Below are positions 5,496-63,286 of a stretch of DNA of 64,000 nucleotides, in pieces (position 1 is the stretch's first letter; the number at the start of each line of letters is the position of its first letter). This DNA is from Candidatus Omnitrophica bacterium UBA6215 (GTDB taxonomy: Bacteria; Omnitrophota; Gorgyraeia; Pluralincolimonadales; Pluralincolimonadaceae), in assembly GCA_002421665.1 (NCBI GenBank), contig DISH01000007.1, forward strand, positions 145,278-209,277, read 5' to 3'. A program made the translations under genes and the position numbers. The notes under the pieces were generated by a model. The model was not told the DNA's origin and made no database searches. It saw nothing but the letters and a program-made list of their open reading frames with translations.

Positions 5496-6494
5496 TTAGG
5501 CAGACTTGCGTTTTATGAGTTTGGGCTCGAAATAACGCAAAAGGGACTTCTTATGGGGAGAATACGCGGAATTTATCAGGTCCTGTCCGGCGGCATAGGC
5601 TATATCGGCCACCGGCTGTTCTACGGTCGTAATAGGCGGATCGAAAAGCTCGCATATAGGTATATTGTCGAAACCTACTACGGCTACGTCTTCCGGTACT
5701 TTTTTTCCGGAAGACTTCACGGCCCTTATAGCGCCTATCGCCATTCTGTCGTTCGCAGCGAACACGGCATCGGGCGGATCGGCCAGCCCAAGCATCTTCT
5801 TTGTCGCGATTTCCGCATCCTCGTATTTAAAATATCCGCGCTCCACATAATCCGGTTTGAACTGGATGCCCGCTTCGGCCAAGGCCTGCTTGTATCCCTT
5901 TAATCTCTCTTCTGCGTCGAACCAGTTCTCGTGTCCGTGCAGGAAGGCTATCCTTTTCCTGCCGGAATCTATAAGGTGCTTTGTCGCTATATAGCCGCCG
6001 CGTTTGTTGTCACAGCCGAAGGAATCGGCCCTGTCGGAATATGCAAAAAGCAGCGCTATGGGAACCTTGCTCCTTTTAAGTTCCTCGAGTTTTTCCGTAT
6101 CGTCTTTGGATATGGCAACAAGTATAAGTCCGTCGACCAGCCTGCTCTTGTACATCCGCAGGCATTGTTCGCCGTCGAATTTGTTCTGGGTAAATATCAT
6201 TATCTGGTAATTGTTCTCGTTGGCAACCTTGGCAACTCCCTTTATGGTATCTATGGCAAAAAAATCCGTATTAAGGAAGGTATCCCTGGGGAATATCAGA
6301 CCTATGACATTTATCTTTTTTGAGGCGAGGCTGGCTGCATGGATATTCGGGAAATATTTTTCCCTATCGAGATGCCGGAGTATGCGCTCCCTGGTCCGAC
6401 CGGCAACATTGTTGTCGTTCTTCAGGACCCTCGATATGGTGCGGCGAGATATATTAAGTTTTTTTGCAAGATCTTCAAGCGTTTTTGCGCTCAT
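5496..6494 (-). CDS. LacI family transcriptional regulator
   Basis: N-terminal HTH LNISRRTISRVLKN, C-terminal periplasmic-binding-protein-like sugar-binding fold; 4-bp overlap with upstream hydrolase gene. Confidence 0.9.
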   Translation of the reverse strand: MSAKTLEDLAKKLNISRRTISRVLKNDNNVAGRTRERILRHLDREKYFPNIHAASLASKKINVIGLIFPRDTFLNTDFFAIDTIKGVAKVANENNYQIMIFTQNKFDGEQCLRMYKSRLVDGLILVAISKDDTEKLEELKRSKVPIALLFAYSDRADSFGCDNKRGGYIATKHLIDSGRKRIAFLHGHENWFDAEERLKGYKQALAEAGIQFKPDYVERGYFKYEDAEIATKKMLGLADPPDAVFAANDRMAIGAIRAVKSSGKKVPEDVAVVGFDNIPICELFDPPITTVEQPVADIAYAAGQDLINSAYSPHKKSLLRYFEPKLIKRKSA

Positions 6495-9400
6495 TCATCA
6501 CCTTTTCCCGATACCAATATAGTAGCAGGCAGTTTGTTAAATGTAAACTCTTTACCTGAGCGCGGATCGTTAAAAACGAACCCGCCGGGAGGGGACGCTT
6601 TTCCGCTGACTTCGAGCTTAAGACCCTTGCTATACGGTTTCAAAGAAAAACTCACGTCTCCATAATATGTCGGCAGCCCCTGCGCTTTTATCTCCTTTCC
6701 GGATACCGCCCACTCTTCAGGTATGCCTGCACCGATGACAAGTTTATCCCCGACCTCATAGACGAACATGTTCCTGACCGCGCATATATACTCGGCGCCT
6801 ATCCAGGTATGCGGCATGTCGCCTATGTACTGGGGATGGCGGTATCCGCTGAAGACAACCTCGGCCCAGTGGTTCCATTCGCGCGGCCGCTTGACTGTCT
6901 GGAAATATTCAAGCATCCTGAAGGCCTGCTCCCTTTTACCCATGAGTATTAGCGCGGATATTGAGCGCACCTCATATGGGGTAAATCCGCCTTTCCAGCC
7001 TTCGCCGGAACGGGGATCGAGCGATTCCCTTAAATACTTATCGAAGGTATTATCCAACTGGGGCCGAGGCAGGTATTCAAGCTGGCTGCACGGGAATACC
7101 GCGATAGCAGTCGAAGTGGCATCAAAATCCCCTTTATCGGCGCAGCCCGGGATAAAATCTATTCCCTTGACATTCATCGCCAGGTCGATGGATTCGTATA
7201 CGGACTTCCTGAAAGACGTCTTCTCGGAGTCTATCCACTTCGCCGCATCTTCCTTGCCGAGGATACGGGCTATTGAACCGGCATCCTCCCATCCTTTAAG
7301 GGCCCAGAAATCATCCCAATAGCTGTGCATGGCCGGGAAATAGCCTTCGTGGCTGTTCGACTCCGGAAGGATCCCGCAAAACACTTTAATATTGTCAGCG
7401 CCCTTGCAATAATAATCCGTAAGCCTTTGCTTCCTGAGCTCGACGAGGTATTCGAGCGCCTTCATTATGTTCGGCCATTTATCCTCAAGGAATTCCCTGT
7501 CGTTGGTAAACCTGTAATAATCATAGATAGAGAATATGAACTCTCCTTGGCTGTCATATTCTTTCCAATCCCTGCACCAGCCGGGCATGCCCCCTTCTTC
7601 AAGTATGAAAGGCACCATCCCGTTGCCATACTGGCGCTGCGCTATCCAGTCGAGGAACTCCTTAACGTCGTCCCTGTAACCCATCCTTAGCAGGGCCGCG
7701 GAGATCAGGGCTCCGTCGCGCATCCAGGCCTTCTTGTAATTGCGCGAGCCCGGTTGGAGCTTAAGGATATCCTTATTGATAAGGATATATCCCAGGTTGG
7801 ACTTCATCGCGTTTATTATCTCTTCGTCCGGGACTTCTATGTTGACCGCGTCAAGCTTTGCCTGCCAATATTTTTTCTGCTGTTCGAGCAACCCGTTGAA
7901 ATAACCGCGAGCCTGGGAAGCTGCCGCAGGAAGATTCCCGACGTTGCCGTGCAAAGGTACGGCAAAAAAGAGGTCCGCACCCTTCCCCGCCGGAAGGCTC
8001 AAGGAATATTCCAAGGCTCCGGAAGCATACTTATCCGGGTCATCGACCGCCCTGCAAGAAGGAACGCCGCCCTTTTCGATATAATCCGTGATATCATTGT
8101 CCCTGTACCTGACAACCCCGAAATTATCCGGTTTAGAAACAGGTATCAGCGCCGGCACTCCGTTGATCCTTACAACGGCAGGAGCGCCGCCCTCGAAAGA
8201 AACGGACCTTATCTCGGAAAGGCCCCCATGCTGCCAGGGGGGATTTACCTGGAAAGGTCTTACGGTAAGAAAAAATTTTCCGGAAAACTTCTCTTGCGTC
8301 CTGTTCTCTATCGTATACCAAATATATGCGGCGGAACTGCCTCGGTCCCCTGACGCGAACAACCTTTGCGTAAAGACCAGGCCGTTACGCTCCCATTCCA
8401 CCTTGGGCAAAGGCAGGTAGTCCTTTTCGAGAGATTGCGTTACCTTCGAATTGCATGAGGTTATGAGTTCTGAACCGTCATAAATATAAGGCATGAACGA
8501 GTAACTGCCAGAATACGGCTCTATCGTGCCGTCCTCGCACAGGAGGCATTCCTTGTCATCCCCGTCTATGCCCACGACGGTCCAATACGCCTGCTGCCTG
8601 TTCAGCCATCTGGGGTAATAGCCAGCAGGGGTCTCCTCGGCAAGCAACTCGAAATGTTTTTGCGGGGTCGCAGATTCATCCGGGCCTTTAAGCATCAGTT
8701 CTTTCAGGGAATATCCGCTGCCGGTATTGCTCTGGCGGCATTGCACTTTTATCGACCTGGCCCTTGCAGGATCCAGGTATATCAGGTCCTTGCTGCCGTT
8801 CCCTTTTTCGTTCGAAAACACATTTTTCCATGAATTGCCGTCTTCGGATATCAGGATATCGTAGGACTTGGCATAATTGAGGCCCCAATTCAACTGTATC
8901 CCGCCTATATCCTTCTGTTTTTTCAGGTCAACCGTTATCCAGGCCTCACCGCACGAATCGTTGAGCCATTCGGTCCCGCGGTCGCCGTCAAAGGCGTTAG
9001 ACGGATCGCTTATGTCCTGGGTACAAGAAGCCGTTACGACCGGTTCCTCATCCGCGCCTTTGACCAGGACCTCAAATACCGAGTATCCCCAGAACGTCCC
9101 GCGCTCTTTCATGAATATCCTTACGTATCTGGCAGGGGCCTTCCTGAAATAGACCTCATCCGTCCCGCCGTCGCTGTCGGTTATCTCGTAGACCGTCTTC
9201 CACTCGGAATTATCGGATGATATCTGGACTTCATATGATTTGCCGTAGGCGGCTTCCCACTTTATGGTGATACCGCATATCTCGATGGTTTGCCCGAGGT
9301 CTAAAAGCAGCCACTGAGGATCCGAGAATTGACTGCTCCACCTGCTCTGGTAATTGCCGTCGACGACATTTGCCGGGCGATAGAGATCGCTTTCGCTGGA

Positions 9401-9508
9401 AGATGCACAAACCTGCACGGCGGAAGGCCGGGCCTGGCCGCTGCAAACGAAAATATAGGACAGGGAGATAATGAATACGGCAAGAACGGTCCTGAGGTTC
9501 TGGTTCAT
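6491..9508 (-). CDS. secreted protein: 2x F5/8 type C (discoidin) domains + six-hairpin glycoside hydrolase domain (GH15/COG3387-like, WMRDGA motif)
   Basis: 1005 aa; signal peptide; two discoidin-like repeats (RWSSQFSDPQWLLLDLG; GTEWLNDSCGEAWITVDLK); C-terminal ~650 aa with YKKAWMRDGA. Confidence 0.5.
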   Translation of the reverse strand: MNQNLRTVLAVFIISLSYIFVCSGQARPSAVQVCASSSESDLYRPANVVDGNYQSRWSSQFSDPQWLLLDLGQTIEICGITIKWEAAYGKSYEVQISSDNSEWKTVYEITDSDGGTDEVYFRKAPARYVRIFMKERGTFWGYSVFEVLVKGADEEPVVTASCTQDISDPSNAFDGDRGTEWLNDSCGEAWITVDLKKQKDIGGIQLNWGLNYAKSYDILISEDGNSWKNVFSNEKGNGSKDLIYLDPARARSIKVQCRQSNTGSGYSLKELMLKGPDESATPQKHFELLAEETPAGYYPRWLNRQQAYWTVVGIDGDDKECLLCEDGTIEPYSGSYSFMPYIYDGSELITSCNSKVTQSLEKDYLPLPKVEWERNGLVFTQRLFASGDRGSSAAYIWYTIENRTQEKFSGKFFLTVRPFQVNPPWQHGGLSEIRSVSFEGGAPAVVRINGVPALIPVSKPDNFGVVRYRDNDITDYIEKGGVPSCRAVDDPDKYASGALEYSLSLPAGKGADLFFAVPLHGNVGNLPAAASQARGYFNGLLEQQKKYWQAKLDAVNIEVPDEEIINAMKSNLGYILINKDILKLQPGSRNYKKAWMRDGALISAALLRMGYRDDVKEFLDWIAQRQYGNGMVPFILEEGGMPGWCRDWKEYDSQGEFIFSIYDYYRFTNDREFLEDKWPNIMKALEYLVELRKQRLTDYYCKGADNIKVFCGILPESNSHEGYFPAMHSYWDDFWALKGWEDAGSIARILGKEDAAKWIDSEKTSFRKSVYESIDLAMNVKGIDFIPGCADKGDFDATSTAIAVFPCSQLEYLPRPQLDNTFDKYLRESLDPRSGEGWKGGFTPYEVRSISALILMGKREQAFRMLEYFQTVKRPREWNHWAEVVFSGYRHPQYIGDMPHTWIGAEYICAVRNMFVYEVGDKLVIGAGIPEEWAVSGKEIKAQGLPTYYGDVSFSLKPYSKGLKLEVSGKASPPGGFVFNDPRSGKEFTFNKLPATILVSGKGDE

Positions 9509-9536
9509 GGATTAGCGGCCTCCTCTTTTAAAACTC

Positions 9537-9575
9537 GCGGACAATTATATATCTTTTTGTCCGCCGGCGCAATAA
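9537..9575 (-). promoter_or_regulatory. candidate promoter/operator of hydrolase-lacI operon: inverted repeat GCGGACAA-N12-TTGTCCGC enclosing TATAAT; TTGCGC -35 at 17 bp
   Basis: Seen directly; perfect 8-bp arms at 9537..9544 and 9557..9564; minus-sense TATAAT at 9549..9544; AGAGGAGG RBS before ATG at 9508. Confidence 0.35.
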
Positions 9576-9714
9576 TATTACCCTCGGTCTTCCGCGCACG
9601 GGGGCTAAGGTTAGCGCGATCGGCCGCCTGGAAGAACAGGACCGGCCCCGCATTGATCGTCAATTGTGGGGGATGAGATTTTTGCAGGACCGGCCCCGTG
9701 AACCTCGTTGTAAG

Positions 9715-10356
9715 TTACTTCTTCTTTTTTGAAACGCCGAGCAAGCCTATCAAGCCGGAGCCCAAAAGAAGCAGGCTCGCCGGTTCCGGTACGGGTTGAG
9801 TATCAGCGACTACATCATCAAAGTAGACCGAACCGCTCGATCCGGTACCGTTGTTCCTGAGCAAAAGCGAGAGGCTCGCCTTCGCCGTCCCGGCAGGTGC
9901 CACCTGCGCGAGGCAAAGGTCTTCCCACCCGCTGGTTGAGGTATTGCGCGTCACGGTATATGCCTGACCGATCTGCGCCTCGCCGGAATCCACGAATTTA
10001 ACCTCAAGGACCGCTTCTGCATTTACCAAAGCTGTAGGAATATTGACCGGAGCCGTCGCATAGAGCGTCTGCCCTTCGGTCACCGAAGCCCACTGGCCCC
10101 AACCACCCCAGCCGGAGCCGGTTATGGCCTCCTTGCCGGAATAGGAACCGCTCTTTACTATTGAGCTTTCCCTGGTACCTGTGATGTCAGGATCGCTGAA
10201 CATATGCCACCAGTCTCCGGGAACCTGTTCGCCGCTGCTACCCCATGGGCCCCAGGTCTCAAAACCGGGATTCGTAAGGGAATTAGAGGCGACTGCCGCG
10301 GAAGACTGCAAAAGTACCGTTCCGATGAACAATCCCATCAAGATGATCTTCTTCAT
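9715..10356 (-). CDS. PEP-CTERM-anchored secreted protein with CBM4_9-like carbohydrate-binding module
   Basis: 213 aa; signal peptide; NSLTNPGFE start of CBM4_9-like fold; C-terminal VPEPASLLLLGSGLIGLLGVSKKKK = PEP-CTERM motif + TM + basic tail (exosortase substrate). Confidence 0.8.
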   Translation of the reverse strand: MKKIILMGLFIGTVLLQSSAAVASNSLTNPGFETWGPWGSSGEQVPGDWWHMFSDPDITGTRESSIVKSGSYSGKEAITGSGWGGWGQWASVTEGQTLYATAPVNIPTALVNAEAVLEVKFVDSGEAQIGQAYTVTRNTSTSGWEDLCLAQVAPAGTAKASLSLLLRNNGTGSSGSVYFDDVVADTQPVPEPASLLLLGSGLIGLLGVSKKKK

Positions 10357-10403
10357 TTATTCACCTCCTTTCGATTTGGTTTTTCTCCCCGGTTAAATTT
10401 TAT

Positions 10404-10417
10404 TGCCCACGTGGGCA
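10404..10417. promoter_or_regulatory. perfect 14-bp palindrome TGCCCACGTGGGCA upstream of PEP-CTERM gene
   Basis: Seen directly; ~50 bp upstream of start codon at 10356; one of three related CACGTG-centred palindromes. Confidence 0.4.
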
Positions 10418-10501
10418 TATATCTTCAAAAAAATATCCCTCAATGCCTACGCTACTGGCCCCGCCCGCTCGCCATAAGGCGAAAAGGCAGGGCCAACTGA
10501 C

Positions 10502-11092
10502 CTATTTAACTAAGGCTATATCATCGATGTAAATAGTACCTTGTTTCTTAGCCGAACAGGTCATATCGTCGAAAACGATCACGAACTCGGTGATCGAGCT
10601 GAGGTCCGTCAGTCCCGAGAAAGAGCCGAGCGGTATTACCGCTTCCTGCCAATCCTTCGATATGTTATCGTAAGTATACCTGCCTACCTCCCCCTTCGAG
10701 TTCTTGAGCTCAAGCTTTATCTTCTGCGAGAATCCGGCAACTCCGTCTCCCTTGACCCAGAAAGACAGCTTGTCATATTTTGTTGCATCCTGGTTAGGCA
10801 GTTTCATCCAGAAACCGTTATACGCGGGATTGGGCGAGTCTACATCATAATCCAGCTGGACCGAAAAACCGTTACCTCCATGCTTAACATCAGAGGTGAA
10901 GTTGGTCTTGCATCCCTGGGTCGTATCGTTGGGATCCTTGTCCCATGCCCCGAAATCCCCTCCCAGGTTGTTGGGTTTGTCACCGGAATCGAAATTCGCT
11001 ATGACAAGAGTGGCCGCGTAACAAGTACCAGAAAGAACCAATACTGCGATCAAAGCGAAAAAGAGACATGATATTTTATTCATCGAAGTCAT
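10502..11092 (-). CDS. secreted beta-sandwich carbohydrate-binding-module-like protein (CIA30/CBM11-like)
   Basis: 196 aa; signal peptide; paralogous (~50% identity by eye) to C-terminal module of 11293..12528 protein (KPNNLGGD..W..DPND.TQGC...YIDDI). Confidence 0.5.
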   Translation of the reverse strand: MTSMNKISCLFFALIAVLVLSGTCYAATLVIANFDSGDKPNNLGGDFGAWDKDPNDTTQGCKTNFTSDVKHGGNGFSVQLDYDVDSPNPAYNGFWMKLPNQDATKYDKLSFWVKGDGVAGFSQKIKLELKNSKGEVGRYTYDNISKDWQEAVIPLGSFSGLTDLSSITEFVIVFDDMTCSAKKQGTIYIDDIALVK

Positions 11093-11171
11093 AAACTCCT
11101 TTATGTTTTAATGCTGCACTTTCCCCTTGGCTTACCCAATAGCCCTTCACTCATCCACCCCCTTTCAATGT

Positions 11172-11199
11172 TTGTAAATGCCCACGAGGGCATTTACAA
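11172..11199. promoter_or_regulatory. 28-bp perfect palindrome TTGTAAATGCCC-ACGA-GGGCATTTACAA in leader of 10502..11092 gene
   Basis: Seen directly; 12-bp arms, 4-bp centre; lies just downstream of a TTGACA-N17-(TGG)TAAGTT promoter-like sequence on the minus strand. Confidence 0.4.
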
Positions 11200-11264
11200 G
11201 TAAAACTTACCATATAGAGCGGTGTTTGTCAAGAAAACTATATTGCTAATTTTATGGAAATATT

Positions 11265-11278
11265 TGCCCACGTGAGCA
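11265..11278. promoter_or_regulatory. near-palindrome TGCCCACGTGAGCA (third copy of motif)
   Basis: Seen directly; 13/14 match to site at 10404. Confidence 0.3.
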
Positions 11279-11292
11279 ATCCAGGACAAAAA

Positions 11293-12528
11293 TTAATCGC
11301 CAAAACCTATATCGTCTATATATACCCTTCCCTGTTTCCTGTCGGCGTTGACCTTGTCATCGAAACGGATGACGAACTCCTTGACGGAGGAAAAATCATT
11401 AAGGCCGGAAAAAGACTTCAGCGGTATAGCAAACCGCTTCCACTCCCCTGTTATCCCGGATAATGTATATTGGCCCTGTTCACCTTTTGAATTCTTTATC
11501 TCCAGCTTCATGTTCTTTGAGAAGCCGAGCGAGCCATCGCCCTTTATCCATAATATAAGGCTCTTGTAGCGCGAGAGGTCCTGGTCCGGGAAAGCCATCC
11601 AATACCCGTCAAGCGCCTCATTTGGGGAATCCACATCATAATTCAGCTCGAGCATGTAGCCCTTGCCGTCGTGTCCGCCGGTGCTGAAATTCATGTTGCA
11701 TCCCTGCGTCTTGTCATTAGGGTCCCTGTTCCATATCCCCATGTCCCCGCCGAGATTGTTGGGCTTGGAACCCGAGTTGTAATCGGCTACGAGCAATTGG
11801 GGCCCGTGCGCTGATCCAGATGCCGGCGAGGACGGCGGCACGGCAACCGTTGTGACCACGTTCCTCGGATAAGACCTGCCAAGCATATAATCCTTAAGCG
11901 CCGCTTTCTTTTCTATCTCTTCGACTGAAGCGTCGTCAACGAAAAATTTCCCGCTACCGTTCGCGGAATTGACATACTGGACCACGAAATTACAGTTATC
12001 CGCATCCTGGGGGGCTATCGCGGAAAGCGAGATAAGCGTCCATCTCAGGTACGGAAGATTGGCGCCGAACTTCTTGCCGTAATCCCTGCTTATCTCTACC
12101 GGGACATCCTTGCCGTCTTTATCCTTGGTCATCTTCCTCCATTCTATGCTGATCTGGCCGTATGAATCTCCGCTTACGGGGTCTTCGCGGGAATTCAGCG
12201 CATAACACCTGAATACGTATTTGTTACCCGGGATGACTTTTCTATAGGTATAAAAAACGCCGGTAGAATCGCCTTGCTTGGGGCATAACAAATATATCGA
12301 TTGCTGCCCTTTCCTCCTTTCGGTGGGACAAAGTCCGTTAAACGAGGAGTTCCAGCTTCCCCATTCGCGGGGGTCTTCATCCCTGAAACCCGGCCTGTTC
12401 TCGAAGCTGGCGTTGGGAAGGATGTTCCTGCCTATCATAACCGCGTTGCCGTCGGCCGGTAAAAAGATGGCCGCAATGCAGGCAATTATCAACGCTCTCA
12501 ACATTCTATTACCGCCTTTCTCCCCCAC
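11293..12528 (-). CDS. secreted two-module protein (CBM4_9-like N-module + CIA30/CBM11-like C-module)
   Basis: 411 aa; signal peptide; N-module paralogous to 12536..13090 protein, C-module paralogous to 10502..11092 protein. Confidence 0.55.
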   Translation of the reverse strand: MGEKGGNRMLRALIIACIAAIFLPADGNAVMIGRNILPNASFENRPGFRDEDPREWGSWNSSFNGLCPTERRKGQQSIYLLCPKQGDSTGVFYTYRKVIPGNKYVFRCYALNSREDPVSGDSYGQISIEWRKMTKDKDGKDVPVEISRDYGKKFGANLPYLRWTLISLSAIAPQDADNCNFVVQYVNSANGSGKFFVDDASVEEIEKKAALKDYMLGRSYPRNVVTTVAVPPSSPASGSAHGPQLLVADYNSGSKPNNLGGDMGIWNRDPNDKTQGCNMNFSTGGHDGKGYMLELNYDVDSPNEALDGYWMAFPDQDLSRYKSLILWIKGDGSLGFSKNMKLEIKNSKGEQGQYTLSGITGEWKRFAIPLKSFSGLNDFSSVKEFVIRFDDKVNADRKQGRVYIDDIGFGD

Positions 12529-12535
12529 TCCGGAA

Positions 12536-13090
12536 TTACTTTACCTCTACCGTGGCATCATCCGCGTAATACGCACCAGAACCGTCCCTGCGGAAGAACT
12601 GTATCACAAAATTGCACGCGTCCGCTTCGGCCGGGGCCGTGGCCGTCATCTCCTGCCTGGTCCAGTCCGTTTTAGAGGTCTCGGGCCCCCAGATAATACC
12701 CCAGGTACGTTCGGTCTCCCTTTCGTTCTTCAGCCATTCTATACTGAGCTGGCCGTAAGCATCCCCCGATATCGGATCCTTGGATGAATTCAAAACAAAA
12801 CAGGAAAATACGTAGGTCTTCCCTGGGACAACGTTGCGATAACGGTATAATATTCCGCTGTGCGAACCCCTGCTCGGCGCCGAACTTATATATACCGACT
12901 GGTCCCCGGTCCTCCCGGATTCAGAAGTAAGGCCGTTGTATTCGGAATTCCATGACCACCATCCCGCCGGGTTCTCGCCGCTGAAGCCTTTAAGTTCCTC
13001 GAAACCGGAATTCGGAACTATATTGCCTTCCGCATACGCGATCGAATGTAAAGACAATATAACGACGGCCGCAGTTAACAGGTGCCTCAT
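12536..13090 (-). CDS. secreted CBM4_9-like protein
   Basis: 184 aa; signal peptide; NIVPNSGFEEL...; paralog of N-module of downstream gene; 4-bp overlap with sensor gene upstream. Confidence 0.55.
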   Translation of the reverse strand: MRHLLTAAVVILSLHSIAYAEGNIVPNSGFEELKGFSGENPAGWWSWNSEYNGLTSESGRTGDQSVYISSAPSRGSHSGILYRYRNVVPGKTYVFSCFVLNSSKDPISGDAYGQLSIEWLKNERETERTWGIIWGPETSKTDWTRQEMTATAPAEADACNFVIQFFRRDGSGAYYADDATVEVK

Positions 13091-15843
13091 TTTGTGCGCC
13101 TCCTCGCTTTCTTATCTTTCTTCTTAGACAGGACATCCAGGAATACCTTGACTATCTTTGGATCAAAATGGGTACCGGATTCTTCCCTTATTATCTTGAG
13201 GGCGCTCTTCTTTGAATAGGCCTTGCGGTAAGGCCGGTTAGAGACCAACGCCTGATATACATCCACAACCGCGACTATCCTGGCCCCCACGGGTATCTCA
13301 TCGCCTCTTAATTTGGACCCGTAACCGTACCCGTCATAACGCTCGTGGTGGTGGAGGATTATAGGCACGACATTCTTGAGGAAATGCACCGGCCGGATTA
13401 TATCGGCGCCGATCTGCGGATGCCTCTTTATAACATCATACTCTTTCTTGGTAAGCTTGCCCCGCTTCAGCAGGATCTTTTCGCTTATGCCCAATTTACC
13501 TATATCATGCAGCATAGCGCCGTGCTTTATGTCTTCTATATCCTCATCGGACAACTTAAGTTTCCTCGCAACCTCTGTACAATACTTCACCATGTCCTCG
13601 GAATGCTCTTCCGTATACTCGTTCTTCGCCCCAACGGTATGGGCCAGGGCATATACGGCCTCTATGGTGTTCTGCCTGTTCCTGCGCAGCAGGTCCATGA
13701 ATTTCTTCGTTATGGCGCTCACTCGTTCTTTCGAATCTTTGTCGGAAGGAGCATGCCCGGCCTTTCTCTTGCGTAATTGCGCCAAGGCAGCTATTGTGTT
13801 CCCGCCCTGCTCCTTTGCCAGGCGCACGCACTTCTCTACCATGGTAAGCAGGCCATCGACAGCAGCCATGCCGTCTTCCGGGTATGATGCTACTCCGACG
13901 CTCACCCTGAGTTTCACCCTGTGGGTCCCGAAATGGTGCTTCTTTACGATCTTCTGTATCCTCTCGGCAAAAGCGAACGCTCCCCGCCCGTCGGTATCAG
14001 GCAATATTATGGCAAAACCTTCACCCTCAAACCTGGTCACGACATCTATGCCCCTGCAAGTATGCTGGAGCAGTATCGCAAATTCCTGGAGGACTACATC
14101 TCCGAACTCGTGCCCGAAGGTATCGTTGACCGACTTGAAATAATCTATATCGACCATCAGCACTGAAAGGGGGGTAGACCTCCTCTTTGCCAGCTCGAAT
14201 TCCGAATGTATCCTTCTCTGGAAATACCTGTAGTTATAAAGCTGCGTATGGGGATCTATGAGGGCCAGGGCTTCTGCTTCCTTCTTTTCCCTTTCTATCC
14301 TCTTTATCTCAGACATATCCCTGAAGATACCCTGCGACACTTTCCTTCCGCCTATCTCGAGCAGAGAAGCGCTTATATATACCGGTATCCTTTCCCCCGC
14401 CGAATTAATTATCTCGCCTTCGGTAAATGTTTCCCCGTCACCGCCCAACTCCGCGGCTCTGTTTGTAATAGTCCGGAATTTCTCCTTGTATATATCCTCT
14501 TCCTCCGGGGGGTGGAGCCTGGACTGGTGCAGGCCGATTAGTTCCTGCCTGGACCGGCCCATGAGTTTTTCCGTCTTCTTGTTCGCATCAACAATTCTGC
14601 CTGTGGTTATATCGGCTATGAATATTGCGTCATTGGCCGATTCAAAGAGGTTCCTGAACTTCTCCTCGGATTCCCTTGTCCGGGCTTCAAGTTTCTTGCG
14701 CAGCGTTACGTCTCTGGCTATCCCGATAGTGCCGATCACCTCGCCTTTGTCGTTGCAGAAAGGGGTCTTGATCGTCTCTATTATGGTAGAGTTGCCCTTG
14801 CTGTCTATAAGGGGCTCTTCGAATACCTTCCTGCGGCCCGTAGACATTACCTCTTTGTCGTCAACCCTGTATTTATCTGCCAGCTCCCGGTTCCAGACAT
14901 CCGAATCCGATCTTCCGACCAGATCTTCCGCGTTGACCCCGGCGGCCGCCGCAAAAGATTCGTTCACTGCGATGAACCTGCTGTCTTTGTCCTTCAACCA
15001 TGCCATATCCGGGATATTGTTAAGTATGGCGTCCTGGCGCTGTTTTACCTCCTTAAGCAGTATCTCGCCCGATCTTTCGTTAGTGATATCGCGGACTATG
15101 GTTATGATCCTGTTTATCTTCCCGTTATCGAGTATGGGGATCTTCTGGGTCTCGGTTATTATTTCTTTTTTGTCGAGCGATATCTTCTCTTCCGTGGTCA
15201 GGGACCTGCCGGTCTTCAACACCCTGTGGTATTCGTCCCTGCTCCTCTCGGGCAGGAACGGGAAAGCATCGAATACATCCATGCCCGCGATATCCGCCTT
15301 GATGCCAAGGCTCCTGTTCCATGCCTTAAAACTGTCATTTACCAAAATTATCTTCAGGTTTTCGTCAACCACGTGTATAGGATAATTAAGGGAATTTATA
15401 GTCTCATGATAAAGCTTCTCGGCTTCCCTCATCTGCCGCTCGGAGCGCAGTTTTTCGGTTACGTCCTCCACCACTTCTATGGCGGCAACGATATTCCCCT
15501 TGTCATCCTCGATAGGCGATGAGACTATGCGGTAATTCACTGTCCTGCCGGGAAAAACGGTGTCCGTGACGGATTCATGGACCTTTCCGTCGGAAATGGT
15601 CTTTACCACGGGGCAATATGAACAAATGGAATTCCTGGGGGGATAATTGAAAGACTTATGGCATATAGGCTGTTTCTTGATATCGACGTCGGGGAACCAT
15701 CTTTTCATGACCTTGTTTATCGCGATTATCTCCATTCTGGTATTGATAACCGCGACACCGACGCCAAAGTTATCGAGAAGCTTGAAACAGCTCTTATTGC
15801 TCTTTAACCAATCTTCGTCCCTGGTAAAAAGGTTTACGAACAT
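13087..15843 (-). CDS. multi-PAS / degenerate GGDEF / HD-GYP c-di-GMP phosphodiesterase-type signalling protein
   Basis: 918 aa; ~4 PAS repeats; GGDEF domain with intact I-site RGID but A-site RFEGEGF; C-terminal HD-GYP (MLHDIGK ... HHERYDGYGYG). Confidence 0.8.
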   Translation of the reverse strand: MFVNLFTRDEDWLKSNKSCFKLLDNFGVGVAVINTRMEIIAINKVMKRWFPDVDIKKQPICHKSFNYPPRNSICSYCPVVKTISDGKVHESVTDTVFPGRTVNYRIVSSPIEDDKGNIVAAIEVVEDVTEKLRSERQMREAEKLYHETINSLNYPIHVVDENLKIILVNDSFKAWNRSLGIKADIAGMDVFDAFPFLPERSRDEYHRVLKTGRSLTTEEKISLDKKEIITETQKIPILDNGKINRIITIVRDITNERSGEILLKEVKQRQDAILNNIPDMAWLKDKDSRFIAVNESFAAAAGVNAEDLVGRSDSDVWNRELADKYRVDDKEVMSTGRRKVFEEPLIDSKGNSTIIETIKTPFCNDKGEVIGTIGIARDVTLRKKLEARTRESEEKFRNLFESANDAIFIADITTGRIVDANKKTEKLMGRSRQELIGLHQSRLHPPEEEDIYKEKFRTITNRAAELGGDGETFTEGEIINSAGERIPVYISASLLEIGGRKVSQGIFRDMSEIKRIEREKKEAEALALIDPHTQLYNYRYFQRRIHSEFELAKRRSTPLSVLMVDIDYFKSVNDTFGHEFGDVVLQEFAILLQHTCRGIDVVTRFEGEGFAIILPDTDGRGAFAFAERIQKIVKKHHFGTHRVKLRVSVGVASYPEDGMAAVDGLLTMVEKCVRLAKEQGGNTIAALAQLRKRKAGHAPSDKDSKERVSAITKKFMDLLRRNRQNTIEAVYALAHTVGAKNEYTEEHSEDMVKYCTEVARKLKLSDEDIEDIKHGAMLHDIGKLGISEKILLKRGKLTKKEYDVIKRHPQIGADIIRPVHFLKNVVPIILHHHERYDGYGYGSKLRGDEIPVGARIVAVVDVYQALVSNRPYRKAYSKKSALKIIREESGTHFDPKIVKVFLDVLSKKKDKKARRRTK

Positions 15844-16643
15844 TATCTCTTCTTATGGGTTGACCTCAGGTTATTAAGCATCTCCTGCGCCTTCCTGAAC
15901 GATATCCCTTCATGGACTATGGCCCTTACCGTCTTTATCATGGCCACGGGATCCTCGGACTGCCAGATGTTCCTTCCCATATCGACGCCCGCCGCGCCGC
16001 GCTTGAGCGCTTCGCATGCTATCTCGAGCGCGTCAAATTCGGTCTTCAATTTAGGGCCCCCGGCTATGACTACCGGGACGGGGCAGCTCTTGATGACCTT
16101 TTCGAAATCGTCGCAGTAATACGTCTTAACGAAACTCGCCCCGGTCTCGGCCGCTATCCTGCAGCAAAGCGATAGATAGCGGGCGTCTCTCTTTTCCAGC
16201 TCTTTCCCGACGGCGGTTACGGCCAGGACGGGCATACCATACTCCATCCCTTCGTCCACCAACCGCGCAAAGTTCATTATCGTCTGGTGCTCGTATTTCG
16301 AACCTATATATATCGAGAACGCAACGGCGGAGACGTTCAACCTGACCGCATCCTTCATCGAAACTGTTATCTCTTCGTTAGACAGGTCCTCGCCTATTAT
16401 ACTATTGCCCCCGGATACCCTGAGGACAACCGGTATATCGCTGGAGGCATCCACGCAGTTGCGCAATACCCCGCGTGTAGGCATAAGAGCATCGGTATAC
16501 GGCAGGAGCGGCTTTATTGTCCGGGAAGGATCTTCCAGCTTCGAGACTGCCCCGAGAAAATAACCGTGGTCAACGGCGAGCATTACCGTATGACCGTCAT
16601 CTTTGATTATACGGCTAAGTCTGTTCTTTATACCCCAATCCAT
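15843..16643 (-). CDS. class I fructose-bisphosphate aldolase, DhnA/FbaB family
   Basis: 266 aa; AVDHGYFLG N-terminal motif and overall DhnA-type (archaeal-type) class I aldolase pattern; 1-bp overlap with sensor gene. Confidence 0.65.
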   Translation of the reverse strand: MDWGIKNRLSRIIKDDGHTVMLAVDHGYFLGAVSKLEDPSRTIKPLLPYTDALMPTRGVLRNCVDASSDIPVVLRVSGGNSIIGEDLSNEEITVSMKDAVRLNVSAVAFSIYIGSKYEHQTIMNFARLVDEGMEYGMPVLAVTAVGKELEKRDARYLSLCCRIAAETGASFVKTYYCDDFEKVIKSCPVPVVIAGGPKLKTEFDALEIACEALKRGAAGVDMGRNIWQSEDPVAMIKTVRAIVHEGISFRKAQEMLNNLRSTHKKR

Positions 16644-16677
16644 ATGGCGTATCTCCTTTTTGTAAAGGGCGTTATAA

Positions 16678-16705
16678 ATTATACCTTATTTACCGGTTTT
16701 TTCAA
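16678..16705 (-). promoter_or_regulatory. sigma70-like promoter TTGAAA-N16-TATAAT for aldolase/sensor/CBM operon
   Basis: Minus-sense TTGAAA at 16705..16700, TATAAT at 16683..16678, AAGGAG RBS ~8 nt before ATG at 16643. Confidence 0.45.
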
Positions 16706-18159
16706 GAAGACACTAACCTGTTCTTCTCTATAAGGTACTGGAGCATCTCAAGTTCCCCCCTGTCAAACCAGATCCCGCCGCAATTAATACACCTGTCGAC
16801 CTCTACCGGAAGCCCGTAAGAAAAGAAGCCCCTGGACATCTTCTTCCCGCAATACGGGCAGTCCAACGGGTCCTGTATCTTGTAAAAATTGGGCCTTGGC
16901 GAAAGCCACTGCACCTTTTGGAGGGAATCGGCCATATCCTTTACCTCTTTGGGAAAAGAATAGTTCTCCCTTGCCAGAATCCTGGCGACCGCGTCGCGCT
17001 TAGAGGATATCCCGCCGCAAACCCCGCAACTCATTGCCGGGGCACCTTCGTAAAGCACTTCGGTCAGAGGCTTAAAACACCTCGGACATTTATTGCTTTC
17101 GCCGGCGCCGGAGATCCGGGGAAAAGGCCCCGGATGAGACTTTATTACGCTTGCCGGGGACACGGTATCACAATGGGCCATATCGAGAAGAACCTTGAGC
17201 CTGCGTTTTATCGGCGGATGCGTCGAAAACATATCCTGGAAAAACCCGTCGGATTCATCCAGGGCTTTAAACCCGGTATTCATTATGAATATCGGTGATA
17301 AGGCCTGCGGCACGGCGCCCAGGCCGCGCCAGCCCCTGGAAATTATATAAAGCGATTCTGCCAGGGCCAGCGGATCCCTTGTAAGCTTGACCGCCACCGC
17401 GTCGGCGCGATACTCCCTCTGCCTCGATATGAATATATTGAGCATGTAATTAATGCCTTTTACCGCCAAGAGTATAAAATAGACCACGACAAGGTATGCC
17501 CCAAACCTCGCGCCTATACTTACGCCGGTATCGGACCTGTCCGAGGAATCCCTTAACGTCATGCGGTCTATAACGGAAAGGATCGCGGCATATACCCCGA
17601 AAAGAGAACAGATCAAGGTAGTGGAAAAGCTGTCGCCGGAAGCTATATGAGCGGCCTCGTGGCCTACCACGGCCTCAAGCTGGCTCCTGGTGAGCCTGGA
17701 TAAAAGGCCTTCGGTTATGCCGATAACGGCATTGCCCTTCCCGTCGGAGACGGCGAAAGCGTTCATGCCAGAAACGGGTATCACATAAGCGTCTATGCGT
17801 ATACCCCCGGTAGCAACGGATACTTCATCGACGACATTCCTGAACATCTTATGATAGGAATCCCTAGGGTCGGGCCGCGATGCGTCAAGCAGGTTTAGGA
17901 TATCGCCTACCATATTCCTGGTAGAAAAATACCAGTGGATATACGCTACGGCTAAAGATACGAGGAAGACAAAAACGGATTCGCGTAAAGATAAGACGGG
18001 GACCCCGGCCGCGGCATACGTATAAGCGCCCGAAAAAAAGAACCTGGTCACGATCCAGAGCAGCTGGGCTGCGATGAAATAGAAAACGAGGAGAAACACA
18101 AAGACAACCTGTATCTGCCACGTCTTGTGCTTTTCTATCTCAACGAATGAGTAGGGCAT
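16702..18159 (-). CDS. M48 family zinc metallopeptidase (HtpX-like) with two C-terminal TFIIB-type zinc ribbons
   Basis: 485 aa; TM helices; HEAAHIASGD; C-terminal CPRCF...CGVCGG and CPYCG...CINCGGIWFDRGEL. Confidence 0.8.
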   Translation of the reverse strand: MPYSFVEIEKHKTWQIQVVFVFLLVFYFIAAQLLWIVTRFFFSGAYTYAAAGVPVLSLRESVFVFLVSLAVAYIHWYFSTRNMVGDILNLLDASRPDPRDSYHKMFRNVVDEVSVATGGIRIDAYVIPVSGMNAFAVSDGKGNAVIGITEGLLSRLTRSQLEAVVGHEAAHIASGDSFSTTLICSLFGVYAAILSVIDRMTLRDSSDRSDTGVSIGARFGAYLVVVYFILLAVKGINYMLNIFISRQREYRADAVAVKLTRDPLALAESLYIISRGWRGLGAVPQALSPIFIMNTGFKALDESDGFFQDMFSTHPPIKRRLKVLLDMAHCDTVSPASVIKSHPGPFPRISGAGESNKCPRCFKPLTEVLYEGAPAMSCGVCGGISSKRDAVARILARENYSFPKEVKDMADSLQKVQWLSPRPNFYKIQDPLDCPYCGKKMSRGFFSYGLPVEVDRCINCGGIWFDRGELEMLQYLIEKNRLVSS

Positions 18160-24010: not shown

Positions 24011-25243
24011 ATGGAAATCAACACTACACGGACGATAAACGAACTCGTCTCCGCCATTGCCTATGTGCTTGACGTTATGAGCGAAGGCACCAACCTCTAT
24101 CACTCCTGGCGAGTAGGCATATTTTCATCGGAATTCGCCAAGGTCATACTGCCGGAAGAAAGAAAGAACGTCTTCTATGCCTCCCTCCTCCATGACATCG
24201 GGTACCTGGCGCTTCCCGAGCACATAACGCACTACCTTTTCACCCACGAAGACCCGGTAAAGAACCCTATCATACTTTCTCATACGATAATAGGCGCAGA
24301 GCTGACAAGCCAGATACCCAACCTTTCGACGATAGCAAAGCTCATCCTGAACCACCATGAATGGTATAACGGCAGGGGGTATCCACTAGGCAGGCAGCGT
24401 AACGAAATCCCCATGGGCGCGCAAATAATACTGCTCGGGGACCAGTTGGATCTCTTTCTGAGGGATGAATCTGTCCACGGCATAAAAGAGGTCGAGAAAG
24501 AGATGTCGGCCTGGGCGAATGAACGGGCCTCCGCGGAACTCGTGAATACGGCGCTCGATATATTAAAGAACGGCGACATCCTTAACGAGGTAATAGACAA
24601 GGACAGGGTCGCCGACGTCTTCAAGAAGGTGCGTACTGAAACAGGCCAGATAGATATACCGGCAAGTGTTGACGCCGTAGGCATAGCGTGCGAGGTCTTC
24701 TCCCAACTCATCGACACGAAACACCCTTCCATGATAGGCCATTCAAAAAGGGTTTCCGTGTACGCCATGCTCATAGCGCTGGCCATGAACCTCTCCCACG
24801 ACGATATCACCAAGACCAAGTGGGCTGCGCTGCTGCATGACGTCGGGAAGCTTGGGATCGCCAGGAGCCTGATAAATAAACCCGGAAAACTCACTCCCGA
24901 AGAATTCGAGACCATAAAACTGCACGCCGTCTATACGCGCGAGTTATTGGAGACTATAACTGATTTCAAGGATGTTTCGCTGATCGCCAGTTCGGACCAC
25001 GAGAGGTTCGACGGCAAGGGATATCCCCTCGGCCTCAAAGGCGACCAGATACCGATAGGCACGAAGATAATATCGATAGCCGATGCTTTCGATGCCATGA
25101 CGTCTACCAGGACTTACAGAAAGGCGCTGTCGAAAGAAGTAGCGTGCGAAGAGATAGAGAAATGCTCCGGGACACAGTTCGATCCCGCAGTAGTAAAAGA
25201 AGCTGTCCCCGTCCTCAGGAACCTTTCAGTATCGCTGATGTAG
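24011..25243 (+). CDS. tandem HD-GYP domain protein (two HD-GYP phosphodiesterase-like domains)
   Basis: 410 aa; LLHDIGY...HHEWYNGRGYPLG and LLHDVGKLG...HERFDGKGYPLG; only plus-strand gene in window. Confidence 0.8.
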   Translation: MEINTTRTINELVSAIAYVLDVMSEGTNLYHSWRVGIFSSEFAKVILPEERKNVFYASLLHDIGYLALPEHITHYLFTHEDPVKNPIILSHTIIGAELTSQIPNLSTIAKLILNHHEWYNGRGYPLGRQRNEIPMGAQIILLGDQLDLFLRDESVHGIKEVEKEMSAWANERASAELVNTALDILKNGDILNEVIDKDRVADVFKKVRTETGQIDIPASVDAVGIACEVFSQLIDTKHPSMIGHSKRVSVYAMLIALAMNLSHDDITKTKWAALLHDVGKLGIARSLINKPGKLTPEEFETIKLHAVYTRELLETITDFKDVSLIASSDHERFDGKGYPLGLKGDQIPIGTKIISIADAFDAMTSTRTYRKALSKEVACEEIEKCSGTQFDPAVVKEAVPVLRNLSVSLM

Positions 25244-44655: not shown

Positions 44656-45531
44656 TTATTTGGTCATCCGGGAGATGTCAAAACCCGCCGTAAGGTCCCT
44701 CTTGCCTTGTTTTCCGTCCATCTTCAGGCGCAGCAATATCACATCTCCGTCCTTCGAGACTTCCAGCTTTCCTTCGGTATAATTATAGTATTTAAAATTG
44801 CTCCTTATAATATCAACCGGCTGTTTGGACCGTTCCGCCAGCATCTTGATAAATCCCTCGTCCTTTATCTCTATGATACCGCCGGGCCCATCCGTAGTAA
44901 ATTCCCCTTTTATAGAAGTCAACTCGAGGTCCTTCCCGGCCAACTCGATCTCCCCTGACATCTTCCCCTTGATGCCGAACTTTTGCGAAGCATCGAAAAA
45001 TTTTGGAAGCAGCCCCAGGTCTATGCTGTTGACTTTTACCACCGCGTCGTATTCTATGTCCTTCTTGACCGAAGCATTCGCCCGCACAATGGCGCTCAGG
45101 TCGCAATCGGAGGTATGTATCTCGAGGTTCATCTCGTTTATTTCAAGAGAATCCACGATGAACATGGCCCCGGGTTTCGGCGCGGGCATCTCTAAAAGGT
45201 CATTTACCTTTTCTGAAGGCGAGCTCAGTACGATACTGCAGCCGTTTATAGATACCTTGGGAACTGTCCTGTTCAGAAGCGTCAGGGGGCCTAACCTTAT
45301 ATCGAGTTCCCTTGCCCTGTAACGGACGGATTCGCCTTTGCTTATTTCGATATTCGAGAAAGATACCAGGTCGGCGGTTTTTACCTCGGTGTTGCTTATC
45401 GTTACTTTATAACCCGGGAAAGCGGACCTTAGCTGCTTTTCTGCGGCGCCCAGGATAAAATTTTTTCCGAATATCCAGACCGAAAAGATCACTGCAAGTA
45501 TGGCCGCGAATATCAGGTATTCTTTTTTCAT
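44656..45531 (-). CDS. hypothetical N-terminally membrane-anchored beta-rich protein
   Basis: 291 aa ORF tightly packed between flanking genes; single N-terminal TM. Confidence 0.5.
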   Translation of the reverse strand: MKKEYLIFAAILAVIFSVWIFGKNFILGAAEKQLRSAFPGYKVTISNTEVKTADLVSFSNIEISKGESVRYRARELDIRLGPLTLLNRTVPKVSINGCSIVLSSPSEKVNDLLEMPAPKPGAMFIVDSLEINEMNLEIHTSDCDLSAIVRANASVKKDIEYDAVVKVNSIDLGLLPKFFDASQKFGIKGKMSGEIELAGKDLELTSIKGEFTTDGPGGIIEIKDEGFIKMLAERSKQPVDIIRSNFKYYNYTEGKLEVSKDGDVILLRLKMDGKQGKRDLTAGFDISRMTK

Positions 45532-59646: not shown

Positions 59647-59666
59647 TCGTGTCTCCTTTTTCGGTA

Positions 59667-60617: not shown

Positions 60618-60628
60618 CTATGCCTTTA

Positions 60629-60886: not shown

Positions 60887-60995
60887 TCCTCTTCATCACT
60901 TAATATTTTAACACTTTTAAACAATTGCGGATATCTTTTAGCTTCAAATGTATGAATTTAATAAGAAACTCGCTGTTTAAATATGCCGCGGTGGA

Positions 60996-62372: not shown

Positions 62373-62383
62373 ATATATCCTTA

Positions 62384-63283: not shown

Positions 63284-63286
63284 TTG

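Follow-up and report, generated by a model that had tools for sequence, protein, structure and literature searches.

A locus of Candidatus Omnitrophota with LacI-type operator-like palindromes beside genes for exported CBM-fold and PEP-CTERM proteins

The lac-type repression of Escherichia coli, in which O1 and O3 act as a pair of operators, and the PEP-CTERM/exosortase sorting system, reportedly described by Haft and co-workers, are among the systems closest to the locus considered here; the operator positions of lac are used for comparison, and PepA of Zoogloea is under PrsK/PrsR and sigma-54, a sigma-54/PrsR control known from floc-forming bacteria. The Omnitrophota are uncultured and mostly ultra-small, and their surface biology has been deduced chiefly from giant adhesin-like genes. 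The locus lies at positions 9715–16705 of a 64,000-nucleotide stretch (the window, meaning the whole stretch analysed) of Candidatus Omnitrophica bacterium UBA6215, contig DISH01000007.1. All six of its genes are encoded on the minus strand and specify an LsrF-like enzyme, a sensor with PAS, GGDEF and HD-GYP domains, three exported proteins (A, A+B and B) made of two modules with the fold of carbohydrate-binding modules (CBMs), and a PEP-CTERM protein; genes for a glycoside hydrolase-like (GH-like) protein and for a LacI-family regulator follow downstream.

The likeness to lac comprises an even palindrome with a central CG, the domains of the regulator, a regulator gene in the same locus, and one site near +11 with an auxiliary site 75–85 bp upstream on the same helix face. 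In contrast to lac, the targets are exported CBM-fold and PEP-CTERM proteins instead of catabolic enzymes or transporters, and the regulator gene is located downstream, behind the GH-like gene, with no clear autoregulatory site found. With the PEP-CTERM/exosortase system the locus shares a signal-like N-terminus and a C-terminal sorting motif scoring above the cut-offs; unlike that of PepA, the promoter is of sigma-70 type with LacI-type operators, and the passenger is a CBM4_9-like module.

The reading favoured here, to which we give slightly better than even chances, is that the region is divided into three transcription units, starting from a promoter P1, an operator-controlled promoter P2 and a promoter P3, the second being gated by a sugar-responsive repressor of LacI type.

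The promoter P2, its palindromes and the LacI-family regulator

Two spacers of the locus are long, namely the 200 bp between the genes for A+B and B and the 145 bp between those for B and the PEP-CTERM protein, and both contain conserved regulatory DNA. A 14-bp palindrome, TGCCCACGTGGGCA (TGCCCA-CG-TGGGCA, with a central CG), is found in three copies with at most one mismatch, against 0.01 expected; none of 100 shuffled controls reaches three copies, and all three real copies fall in these two spacers. The elements concerned are the following.

11265–11278, no strand: O1, operator-like palindrome (TGCTCACGTGGGCA on the minus strand), invariant in position in 10 loci
11204–11250, minus strand: P2, sigma-70-type promoter with an A/T-rich block, -35 TTGACA (11232–11227), a 17-nt spacer ending in TGG and -10 TAAGTT (11209–11204)
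11179–11192, no strand: O2, operator-like palindrome, extending to a 24-bp palindrome in the window
11076–11150, minus strand: relic 24-codon open reading frame (ORF) with a GTG start in the leader of B, recognised by alignment with relatives
10404–10417, no strand: O3, perfect palindrome TGCCCACGTGGGCA, its centre about 54 nt upstream of the PEP-CTERM start codon
5496–6494, minus strand: LacI-family regulator (Pfam LacI and Peripla_BP), the proposed binder of O1, O2 and O3

The start of transcription from P2, whose sequence is unique within the window, is predicted about 7 nt past the -10 element, at about 11197, which places the centre of O2 at about +11 and that of O1 at about -75. The locus is kept in about ten metagenome genomes of Omnitrophota (loci numbered L006 to L017 below), and the spacer after A+B was aligned in 10 loci. 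Its order is invariant: O1, an A/T-rich block AAAAATAGCAA.TTAGT.TTC, TTGACA, 17 nt of varying sequence that close with TGG, then TAAATT (in the window TAAGTT), O2, GAAAGGGGGTG and then a GTG AAG AAA start. O1, the A/T-rich block, TTGACA, TGGTAA and O2 are identical in all 10 and the ribosome-binding site nearly so, with variation in the spacer, beside coding sequence just 50–70% identical at the protein level.

Each related locus that has a LacI gene and reaches this region carries a palindrome pair directly after A+B, and in L012, L014 and L015 a second complete promoter-operator module precedes the terminal PEP-CTERM gene; O3 of the window is homologous to the downstream operator of that second module. 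The centres of the paired sites are 83–86 bp or 135–136 bp apart, that is about 8 or about 13 helical turns, and a 50-bp insertion in L006 and L013 leaves the helical phase of the pair intact. The half-sites are kept as sequence, with no compensatory changes (position 4 of O1 varies between C, T and G and is uncompensated), and O1, being upstream of the -35 element, is outside the P2 transcript. In L017, where glpK and glpD stand in place of the LacI gene, the promoter P2 is retained (AAGCAAATTAATCTTCTTGACAA...TGGTAAAAT) and the palindrome is absent; sites and regulator thus occur together in all LacI-bearing loci that reach the region, and L017, the sole negative lineage, has neither.

The LacI-family gene is intact, overlaps the GH-like gene by 4 nt and is encoded 3.2 kb downstream of the second unit; across the loci it is always found about 0.2–3.3 kb downstream. 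Its product contains HTH_LacI and Peripla_BP_1/3/4 domains (Pfam) and is matched by full-length NCBIfam models over residues 5–331, those for RbsR, CytR, PurR and CcpA among them, all under their equivalog cut-offs; this 332-aa protein probably has no LacI tetramerisation helix. When the loci were mapped, no other conserved gene for a DNA-binding protein was seen in the neighbourhood. Motifs of the LacI family are even palindromes with a central CG in 1173 of 1303 cases, the sites are located at -140 to -30 relative to start codons and 72% of the regulators are autoregulated (PMC4052901); the 14-bp even palindrome with its central CG, and its position, fit this rule. Palindrome shape, position, conservation and co-occurrence therefore led us to assign O1–O3 to the regulator at 5496–6494, of which they would be the operators.

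The relic ORF belongs to the history of the same region. Its stop codon runs into the second in-frame ATG of B (11083), at which gene callers begin that gene, and in the relatives whose aligned sequence extends this far (that of L010 stops before it) the same GAAAGGGGGTG...GTGAAG region starts a PEP-CTERM gene. To judge from the alignment, the relic is the surviving ribosome-binding site and first codons of a PEP-CTERM copy that was deleted in the window and in L009, and that is still present in L008, L012, L014 and L015; it is decaying, the GTG start being lost in L009 (93% identical).

A metagenome scan with GGGCAA-N55-85-TGCCCNCGNGGGCA for further members of the regulon yielded, among the matches listed, no orthologues, the matches being chance ones and CRISPR-like arrays. 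Two of the contigs, L035 (5–810) and L090 (41–6658), carry long arrays of repeats with a 65–67-bp period that hold a TGCCC..GGGCA palindrome; these are CRISPR-like and unrelated to the locus.

In the mechanism that we propose, unit 1, transcribed from P1, would comprise the LsrF-like enzyme, the sensor phosphodiesterase and the exported proteins A and A+B; unit 2, from P2, the exported protein B and the PEP-CTERM protein; and unit 3, from P3, the exported glycosidase-like protein with its two CBM32 domains and the LacI-family repressor. Without its putative sugar effector the LacI-family protein would sit on O1 (about -75), O2 (about +11) and O3, and the two in-phase sites around P2 would cooperate like lac O3 and O1, keeping unit 2 off. 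A sugar, plausibly liberated by the glycosidase-like enzyme, would take the repressor off, and B and the lectin-like PEP-CTERM protein would then be produced, the latter being processed by an exosortase encoded elsewhere. The phosphodiesterase would be expressed together with A and A+B, and its PAS domains would respond to a signal; as far as the sequence goes, the link between the cyclic dinucleotide and the CBM proteins would be one of co-expression, as distinct from demonstrated control.

Exported proteins, sensor and enzyme

The remaining features of the region, in the direction of transcription, are these.

16678–16705, minus strand: P1, sigma-70-type promoter TTGAAA-N16-TATAAT, 11 of 12 consensus matches
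15843–16643, minus strand: LsrF-like enzyme of DeoC fold (3-hydroxy-5-phosphonooxypentane-2,4-dione thiolase type; NCBIfam NF006081, alignment to 3gkf)
13087–15843, minus strand: sensor of 918 aa, predicted cytoplasmic, with four PAS domains, degenerate GGDEF and HD-GYP (Pfam, NCBIfam, PDB alignments)
12536–13090, minus strand: A, exported stand-alone CBM4_9-like module (PF02018, E 1.7e-10)
11293–12504, minus strand: A+B, exported two-module protein, CBM4_9-like and CBM11-like, with a variable linker (11-sequence alignment, AlphaFold model)
10502–11092, minus strand: B, exported stand-alone CBM11-like module (PF03425, E 1.7e-8)
10456–10495, minus strand: strong hairpin just 3' of the B stop codon (minimum free energy, MFE, -38.2 kcal/mol, z -4.17)
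9715–10356, minus strand: PEP-CTERM protein that carries as its passenger a divergent module of A type, the third in the locus (PF07589, TIGR02595, hhalign)
9628–9704, minus strand: conserved structured element 3' of the PEP-CTERM gene (MFE -39 kcal/mol, z -4.79)
9544–9572, minus strand: P3, TTGCGC-N17-TATAAT, read from the sequence upstream of the GH-like gene
6491–9508, minus strand: exported GH-like protein of 1005 aa with two CBM32 (discoidin) domains and a glycosidase-like body (Pfam, AlphaFold, Foldseek)

Much of what the first-pass annotation had read from the letters is borne out, and Pfam and NCBIfam recover its gene content and domain calls on the minus strand: the TTGAAA-N16-TATAAT promoter has 11 of 12 matches at 16705–16678 and is kept in 8 loci, the class I aldolase has the DeoC fold and is more exactly LsrF-like, the GGDEF motif is degenerate (EGEGF), the HD-GYP domain is present, though its GYP reads GYG, a PEP-CTERM protein lies downstream (PF07589, 28.6 against 20.7), and the A; A+B; B architecture is real, with module alignments at 45% (A) and 54% (B) identity.

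The two module families are distinguished by several comparisons. A and the N-terminal half of A+B are 45% identical (E 1e-50), and B and its C-terminal half 54% (E 1e-70). PF02018 (CBM_4_9) scores 41.9 on A against a cut-off of 25.9 (E 1.7e-10), and PF03425 (CBM_11), whose cut-off is 27, scores 35.2 on B and 28.7 on A+B, in its C-terminal half. Treatment of A and B as one family was rejected at an hhalign probability of 21%. The passenger of the PEP-CTERM protein has no Pfam match to CBM4_9 when taken alone; pairwise BLAST reaches just 22% identity (E 0.002), and profile-profile alignment of the A family with the passenger family by hhalign gives 97.5% probability, E 8.6e-12, over 151 columns. 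The AlphaFold model of A+B has a mean predicted local distance difference test score (pLDDT) of 66.8, with 76–93 in the B domain and about 70–85 in the A domain, and in Foldseek it matches CBM11 of Clostridium thermocellum Lic26A-Cel5E (1v0a, 6r31) with a template modelling score (TM) of 0.66–0.70, a root-mean-square deviation of about 3 A and E 5e-8. CBM16, CBM4 and a CIA30-like chain follow as weaker matches, and the first two probably reflect the A half.

On these sequence and model comparisons both modules are taken to be CBM folds. They share Pfam hits above threshold and a fold with the CBM11 of Lic26A-Cel5E and with the CBM4/9/16/22 jelly rolls; in contrast to the CBM11 systems, here the modules are stand-alone exported proteins or are fused only to each other, without a catalytic domain, and the identity of B to CBM11 is 18–20%.

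The relatives of B are numerous: in a library of 1.84 billion representatives 1719 were found at E <= 1e-3, 210 of them at E <= 1e-30, mostly as stand-alone proteins of about 200 aa, and no recorded names were found for them. In five of ten large relatives the B-type module is fused to PF10091 domains with CBM30 or CBM9, and one such B-PF10091 protein matches GH144 endo-beta-1,2-glucanases (5gzh, 8xul). A GH94 protein encoded 30 kb away in the window (45528–47915, minus strand) is laminaribiose-phosphorylase-like (6ggy, E 1.2e-217), which hints at the use of beta-1,3-glucan oligosaccharides by the organism. A beta-glucan is a plausible candidate ligand.

The GH-like protein carries CBM32 domains that match modules of Paenibacillus glucanase/chitosanase (E 2.4e-22), followed by a 725-aa C-terminal body that is modelled by AlphaFold as a beta-sandwich, a six-hairpin barrel and a second beta-sandwich (pLDDT 94.3). 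This body belongs to a family with no Pfam model and more than 1842 relatives, usually with discoidin domains, in Omnitrophota, Elusimicrobiota, Kiritimatiellia, Planctomycetota and Verrucomicrobiota. Its Foldseek matches to GH94, GH116 and GH15 are distant (TM 0.5–0.65, 11–13% identity), and folds of GH94, GH116, GH15, GH95 and GH142 type match about equally at 11–13% identity, so that the protein could be assigned neither a GH family nor a substrate. P3 is present in five loci (window, L009, L012, L014, L015). A weak operator-like sequence inside it (TGCGCTCATGGGCA in L012-type loci), with 3 mismatches there and 5 in the window, was rejected as too degenerate for autoregulation.

Elsewhere in the window, 57367–59709 (minus strand) encodes another discoidin protein (F5/8 type C), 780 aa long, in which no second kind of domain is annotated. 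The stretches 52000–54000 and 60000–64000 are low in G+C (36–44% against about 52%) and are possibly acquired DNA; they contain genes for a 1011-aa protein that hits Glucodextran_B and DUF900 and for an Mrr-type restriction endonuclease, along with several ORFs without Pfam matches.

The PEP-CTERM signal scores 28.6 bits with PF07589 (cut-off 20.7) and 23.9 with TIGR02595 (cut-off 16). The protein, the sole one of exosortase type in the locus, ends with a PEP motif, a hydrophobic helix and a basic tail (VPEPASLLLLGSGLIGLLGVSKKKK), begins with a hydrophobic segment that reads by eye as a signal peptide, and falls in the second unit. The structured element behind its gene combines a 17-bp stem with a loop some 30 nt long in which TCATCCCCCA is invariant, and is located directly after the terminal PEP-CTERM gene in eight loci, among which are L006 (12106–12180), L012 (12151–12226), L013 (10083–10157), L014 (3284–3359), L015 (12158–12233) and L017 (7856–7930). 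Its stem shows compensatory changes at 11 of 21 predicted pairs; a covariance model finds one copy per locus, those from which it was built, and none elsewhere in the window, and Rfam has no match to it over 9300–17000. The element could be a terminator with a functional loop or a regulatory RNA of the 3' untranslated region.

Of the sensor domains, the HD-GYP aligns with PmGH (4mcw, E 6.7e-37) and with V-cGAP3 (5z7c, E 3.1e-37), which is specific for cyclic GMP-AMP (cGAMP). Motif conservation was read across 10 orthologues, and the PDB alignments also included PleD (1w25). The metal-ligand pattern H...HD...H...HH...D, common to the HD-GYP phosphodiesterases PmGH, V-cGAP3 and RpfG, is intact in all 10, while the GYP signature is replaced in every orthologue by GYG (HHERYDGYGYG, Pro to Gly), and the Glu that binds the third metal in PmGH is Tyr, as in V-cGAP3. 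The sensor is a probable cyclic-dinucleotide phosphodiesterase on these alignments. Its GGDEF motif reads EGEGF in the window, which departs from the GG(D/E)EF of active diguanylate cyclases, and EGEDF or QGEDF in relatives, the canonical GGEEF being seen solely in L017. The RxxD site is retained in all orthologues, and the D-x-D/ND/GD residues and the guanine-contacting N and D are kept as well; with the motif degenerate and these residues kept, the domain is therefore regarded as regulatory rather than catalytic, and is probably a nucleotide-binding one. Caulobacter PdeA/CC3396 is an enzyme with a degenerate, regulatory GGDEF domain; the present sensor resembles it in this respect and differs in having HD-GYP rather than EAL as output, with four PAS domains. 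PAS1 (window 15585–15680, minus strand, residues ~55–90) has an invariant C-x12-C-x2-C and an invariant His in DGKxHE, and in L006 and L013 a fourth Cys gives CxxC-x9-CxxC; these residues could form a metal or Fe-S site, and the pattern recalls Fe-S PAS sensors such as NreB, a likeness offered as a lead only. Some 8 kb upstream of the locus, the other strand encodes a second HD-GYP-type protein (24011–25243, plus strand), with two HD_5 regions of which the N-terminal one also matches HDIG/HDOD.

The enzyme at 15843–16643 scores 394.9 bits with NF006081 against a cut-off of 297, an equivalog-level match, and aligns with E. coli LsrF (3gkf, E 1.1e-82) over residues 1–255 of 266; the active-site Lys of the (I/V)KTYY stretch is kept, and the first 31 profile positions are missing. 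It shares match level and Lys with the phospho-AI-2 thiolase of E. coli (3gkf, 4p2v), and differs from it in that the partner gene encodes a cyclic-dinucleotide enzyme: across the loci it is always paired with the HD-GYP sensor gene, and no lsr genes (lsrK, lsrG, lsrR, lsrACDB) were found among the window ORFs scanned or in the syntenic loci.

Comparative map, gene junctions and competing readings

The exact A+B product is encoded by an identical locus on 18 metagenome contigs. Its start is ATG 12504, whose product matches public assemblies and is the one on record; a start at GTG 12528 was discarded, an exact look-up of its product giving no match. The named relatives of the locus belong to Candidatus Omnitrophota, and some bins carry the label Planctomycetia. 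When the window proteins were mapped on ten related loci, four architectures were obtained.

Window and L009: enzyme, sensor, A, A+B, B, PEP-CTERM, GH-like, LacI
L012, L015, L014 with L016 (and L008 as far as its contig reaches): the window order with an extra PEP-CTERM gene between A+B and B
L006 and L013: enzyme, sensor, A+B, PEP-CTERM, LacI
L017: enzyme, shorter sensor, A, PEP-CTERM, B, PEP-CTERM, without the A+B fusion and without LacI

Orthologues of A are 68–73% identical in L008, L010, L011, L012, L015 and L016 and 95% in L009. With the near-identical L009 left out, orthologues across genomes are 53–75% identical, against 38–56% for paralogues within a genome, and by neighbour-joining the A sequences split deeply into one clade of stand-alone modules and one of the parts taken from A+B, both in species order; the B sequences do likewise. 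The duplication and fusion are therefore old and stable. A recent event is, by DNA comparison, the homogenisation of the two PEP-CTERM copies that flank B in L012 (9954–10592 and 11503–12144), L014 (1082–1729 and 2627–3274) and L015 (9943–10587 and 11500–12147), whose DNA is 97.5–99.8% identical when copies of one genome are compared and 84% identical from species to species; upstream of the genes the identity drops to about 49%, which suggests gene conversion limited to the coding sequence. The tree of the passengers is incongruent with the species tree, since the window passenger groups with that of L017 and those of L012–L015 with that of L013; the window passenger is 50% identical to L017a and 36–40% to L012–L015, where the genes alongside reach about 73%. 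The signal peptide and the sorting tail are kept while the passenger differs, which suggests cassette replacement of the exposed domain.

The first four genes are tightly packed. The enzyme and sensor genes overlap by 1 nt and the sensor gene and A by 4 nt (ATGA), and a 31-nt gap with a ribosome-binding site ahead of ATG 12504 separates A from A+B. The ATGA overlap recurs in every locus where a stand-alone A follows the sensor gene with no gap, and on this evidence the two genes appear translationally coupled, so that the sensor is plausibly co-expressed with A and A+B. P1 is closer to the consensus than any other sequence of the region, extends over the stop codon of the M48/HtpX-like gene that lies upstream, and is kept in all eight orthologous loci aligned, L008 included, where htpX is absent.

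The alternative that survives best, unlikely as we consider it, holds that the sensor and CBM genes are functionally unlinked neighbours, kept together by the vertical inheritance of a compact genome, and that the coherent unit consists of A, A+B, B, the PEP-CTERM protein, the GH-like protein and LacI. It is in keeping with the synteny of the whole 20-kb region in the same genomes, unrelated housekeeping genes included; in L018 a more distant A-type gene lies in an unrelated context, without a sensor, and the pair of LsrF-like enzyme and sensor has no evident glycan function. However, the ATGA overlap of sensor and A is recurrent, where A is missing A+B is close to the sensor gene (26 nt in L006, a short gap in L013), and conserved promoter-like or operator-like DNA is absent between the sensor gene and A.

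The first-pass annotation had proposed a single operon that starts at P1, takes in B and may extend over the PEP-CTERM gene, in which the HD-GYP protein sets the level of cyclic diguanylate (c-di-GMP) and thereby controls the CBM-like and PEP-CTERM proteins, for example in a biofilm matrix; we hold this to be improbable. In its favour, the genes all share a strand, the conserved P1 is a strong promoter, the sensor gene and A are coupled, the order of the sensor followed by A or A+B is held in four lineages, and a strong terminator after A+B is absent in the window. Against this, a conserved internal promoter with flanking operators stands between A+B and B, and O3 precedes the PEP-CTERM gene; of the five overlapping or near-overlapping genes that had been described, the first four are as stated and B lies 200 bp from A+B, so that short or overlapping junctions end before the last two genes. 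Rfam at a permissive threshold over 9300–17000 matches no family, the c-di-GMP riboswitches included, Pfam scans of 38 window ORFs contain neither an exosortase nor PilZ, and no exopolysaccharide genes turned up among the ORFs scanned; the A-type gene of L018 has no sensor, and gene order is kept over a long range in these genomes, from LemA as far as the hopanoid genes, so that synteny alone says little on function. The claim of co-transcription of a c-di-GMP protein with surface proteins is plausible for the sensor with A and A+B and unsupported for the PEP-CTERM protein, which would be in the second unit behind P2; recent duplication does not agree with paralogues 38–56% identical in deep clades that follow the species tree, and c-di-GMP control of the surface proteins found no counterpart in the riboswitch and ORF scans. 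The best-supported control on the PEP-CTERM protein would instead be a sugar switch of lac-repressor type.

Doubtful to a like degree is the proposal that the palindromes are bound by some other regulator, with its gene at a distance, or work in the RNA as hairpins (for attenuation or processing) while LacI controls just the GH-like or distant sugar genes. For it speak the extension of O2 to a hairpin with a 10-bp stem in the window, the expected presence of O2 and O3 in transcripts, the GH-like/LacI unit, ahead of which no operator was found, and the single LacI-less lineage that serves as the test. Against it, O1 lies upstream of the -35 element and outside the P2 transcript, the half-sites are kept as sequence with no compensatory changes, the in-phase spacing survives the 50-bp insertion, the shape fits the LacI-family rule (PMC4052901), and no other conserved gene for a DNA-binding protein is nearby.

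Several points weigh against the three-unit reading with its LacI-type gate. The link between LacI and the operators is built on the shape of the sites, on proximity and on a single lineage, L017, that serves as a natural 'knock-out' and is at the same time the most divergent of the loci, and no clear operator is seen upstream of the GH-like/LacI unit, despite the 72% autoregulation of the family (PMC4052901). In the window the -10 element of P2 (TAAGTT) is weak and was missed by a consensus scan, and of the second promoter-operator module O1' and the -35 are lost and just the perfect O3 is left. The P2 start is a prediction, and the transcript boundaries are presumptive. No convincing intrinsic terminator follows A+B in the window (folding test, z +0.42), and read-through from P1 into B and the PEP-CTERM gene is possible; the hairpin that folds strongly, with none of 200 shuffles folding as well, is the one after B (10456–10495). 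The HD-GYP, with equal scores to V-cGAP3 and PmGH, could act on 3'3'-cGAMP as readily as on c-di-GMP, and carbohydrate binding by A, B and the passenger is suggested by fold and fusion partners only.

Meaning for the Omnitrophota

Every part of the locus comes from a known family, and the dual-operator geometry is like that of lac O1/O3. The combination is new in two respects, namely LacI-type operators on genes for a PEP-CTERM protein and a CBM-only exported protein, and an LsrF-like enzyme with a degenerate-GGDEF/HD-GYP(GYG) sensor tightly linked to CBM-fold proteins. Searches for papers that link PEP-CTERM either to Omnitrophota or to exosortase and c-di-GMP together found none of relevance, and the main survey of the Omnitrophota (PMC10066038) mentions neither PEP-CTERM nor exosortase, c-di-GMP or LacI.

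Taken jointly, and with much reserve, for we rate it very improbable as a whole, the locus would be a glycan-recognition switch by which ultra-small, possibly host-dependent Omnitrophota fasten themselves to a polymer or to the cell of a partner. In it, a repressor of lac type would unmask a lectin that is anchored through PEP-CTERM and has its passenger exchanged from lineage to lineage. A cyclic-dinucleotide phosphodiesterase that senses redox state or metabolites would be produced together with periplasmic or secreted CBM proteins, and the conserved 3' hairpin, with UCAUCCCCCA invariant in its loop, would represent a new kind of regulatory RNA that targets the ribosome-binding sites of GGGGG type in these genes.

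The account of the locus by c-di-GMP, attractive yet unsupported, is corrected here. What the Omnitrophota would possess at this place is a compact circuit in which a candidate repressor, one promoter and three proposed operators are joined to the genes for four small exported proteins of CBM fold; if the assignment of the operators is true, PEP-CTERM genes would be under sugar-responsive control of LacI type and not under sigma-54/PrsR.

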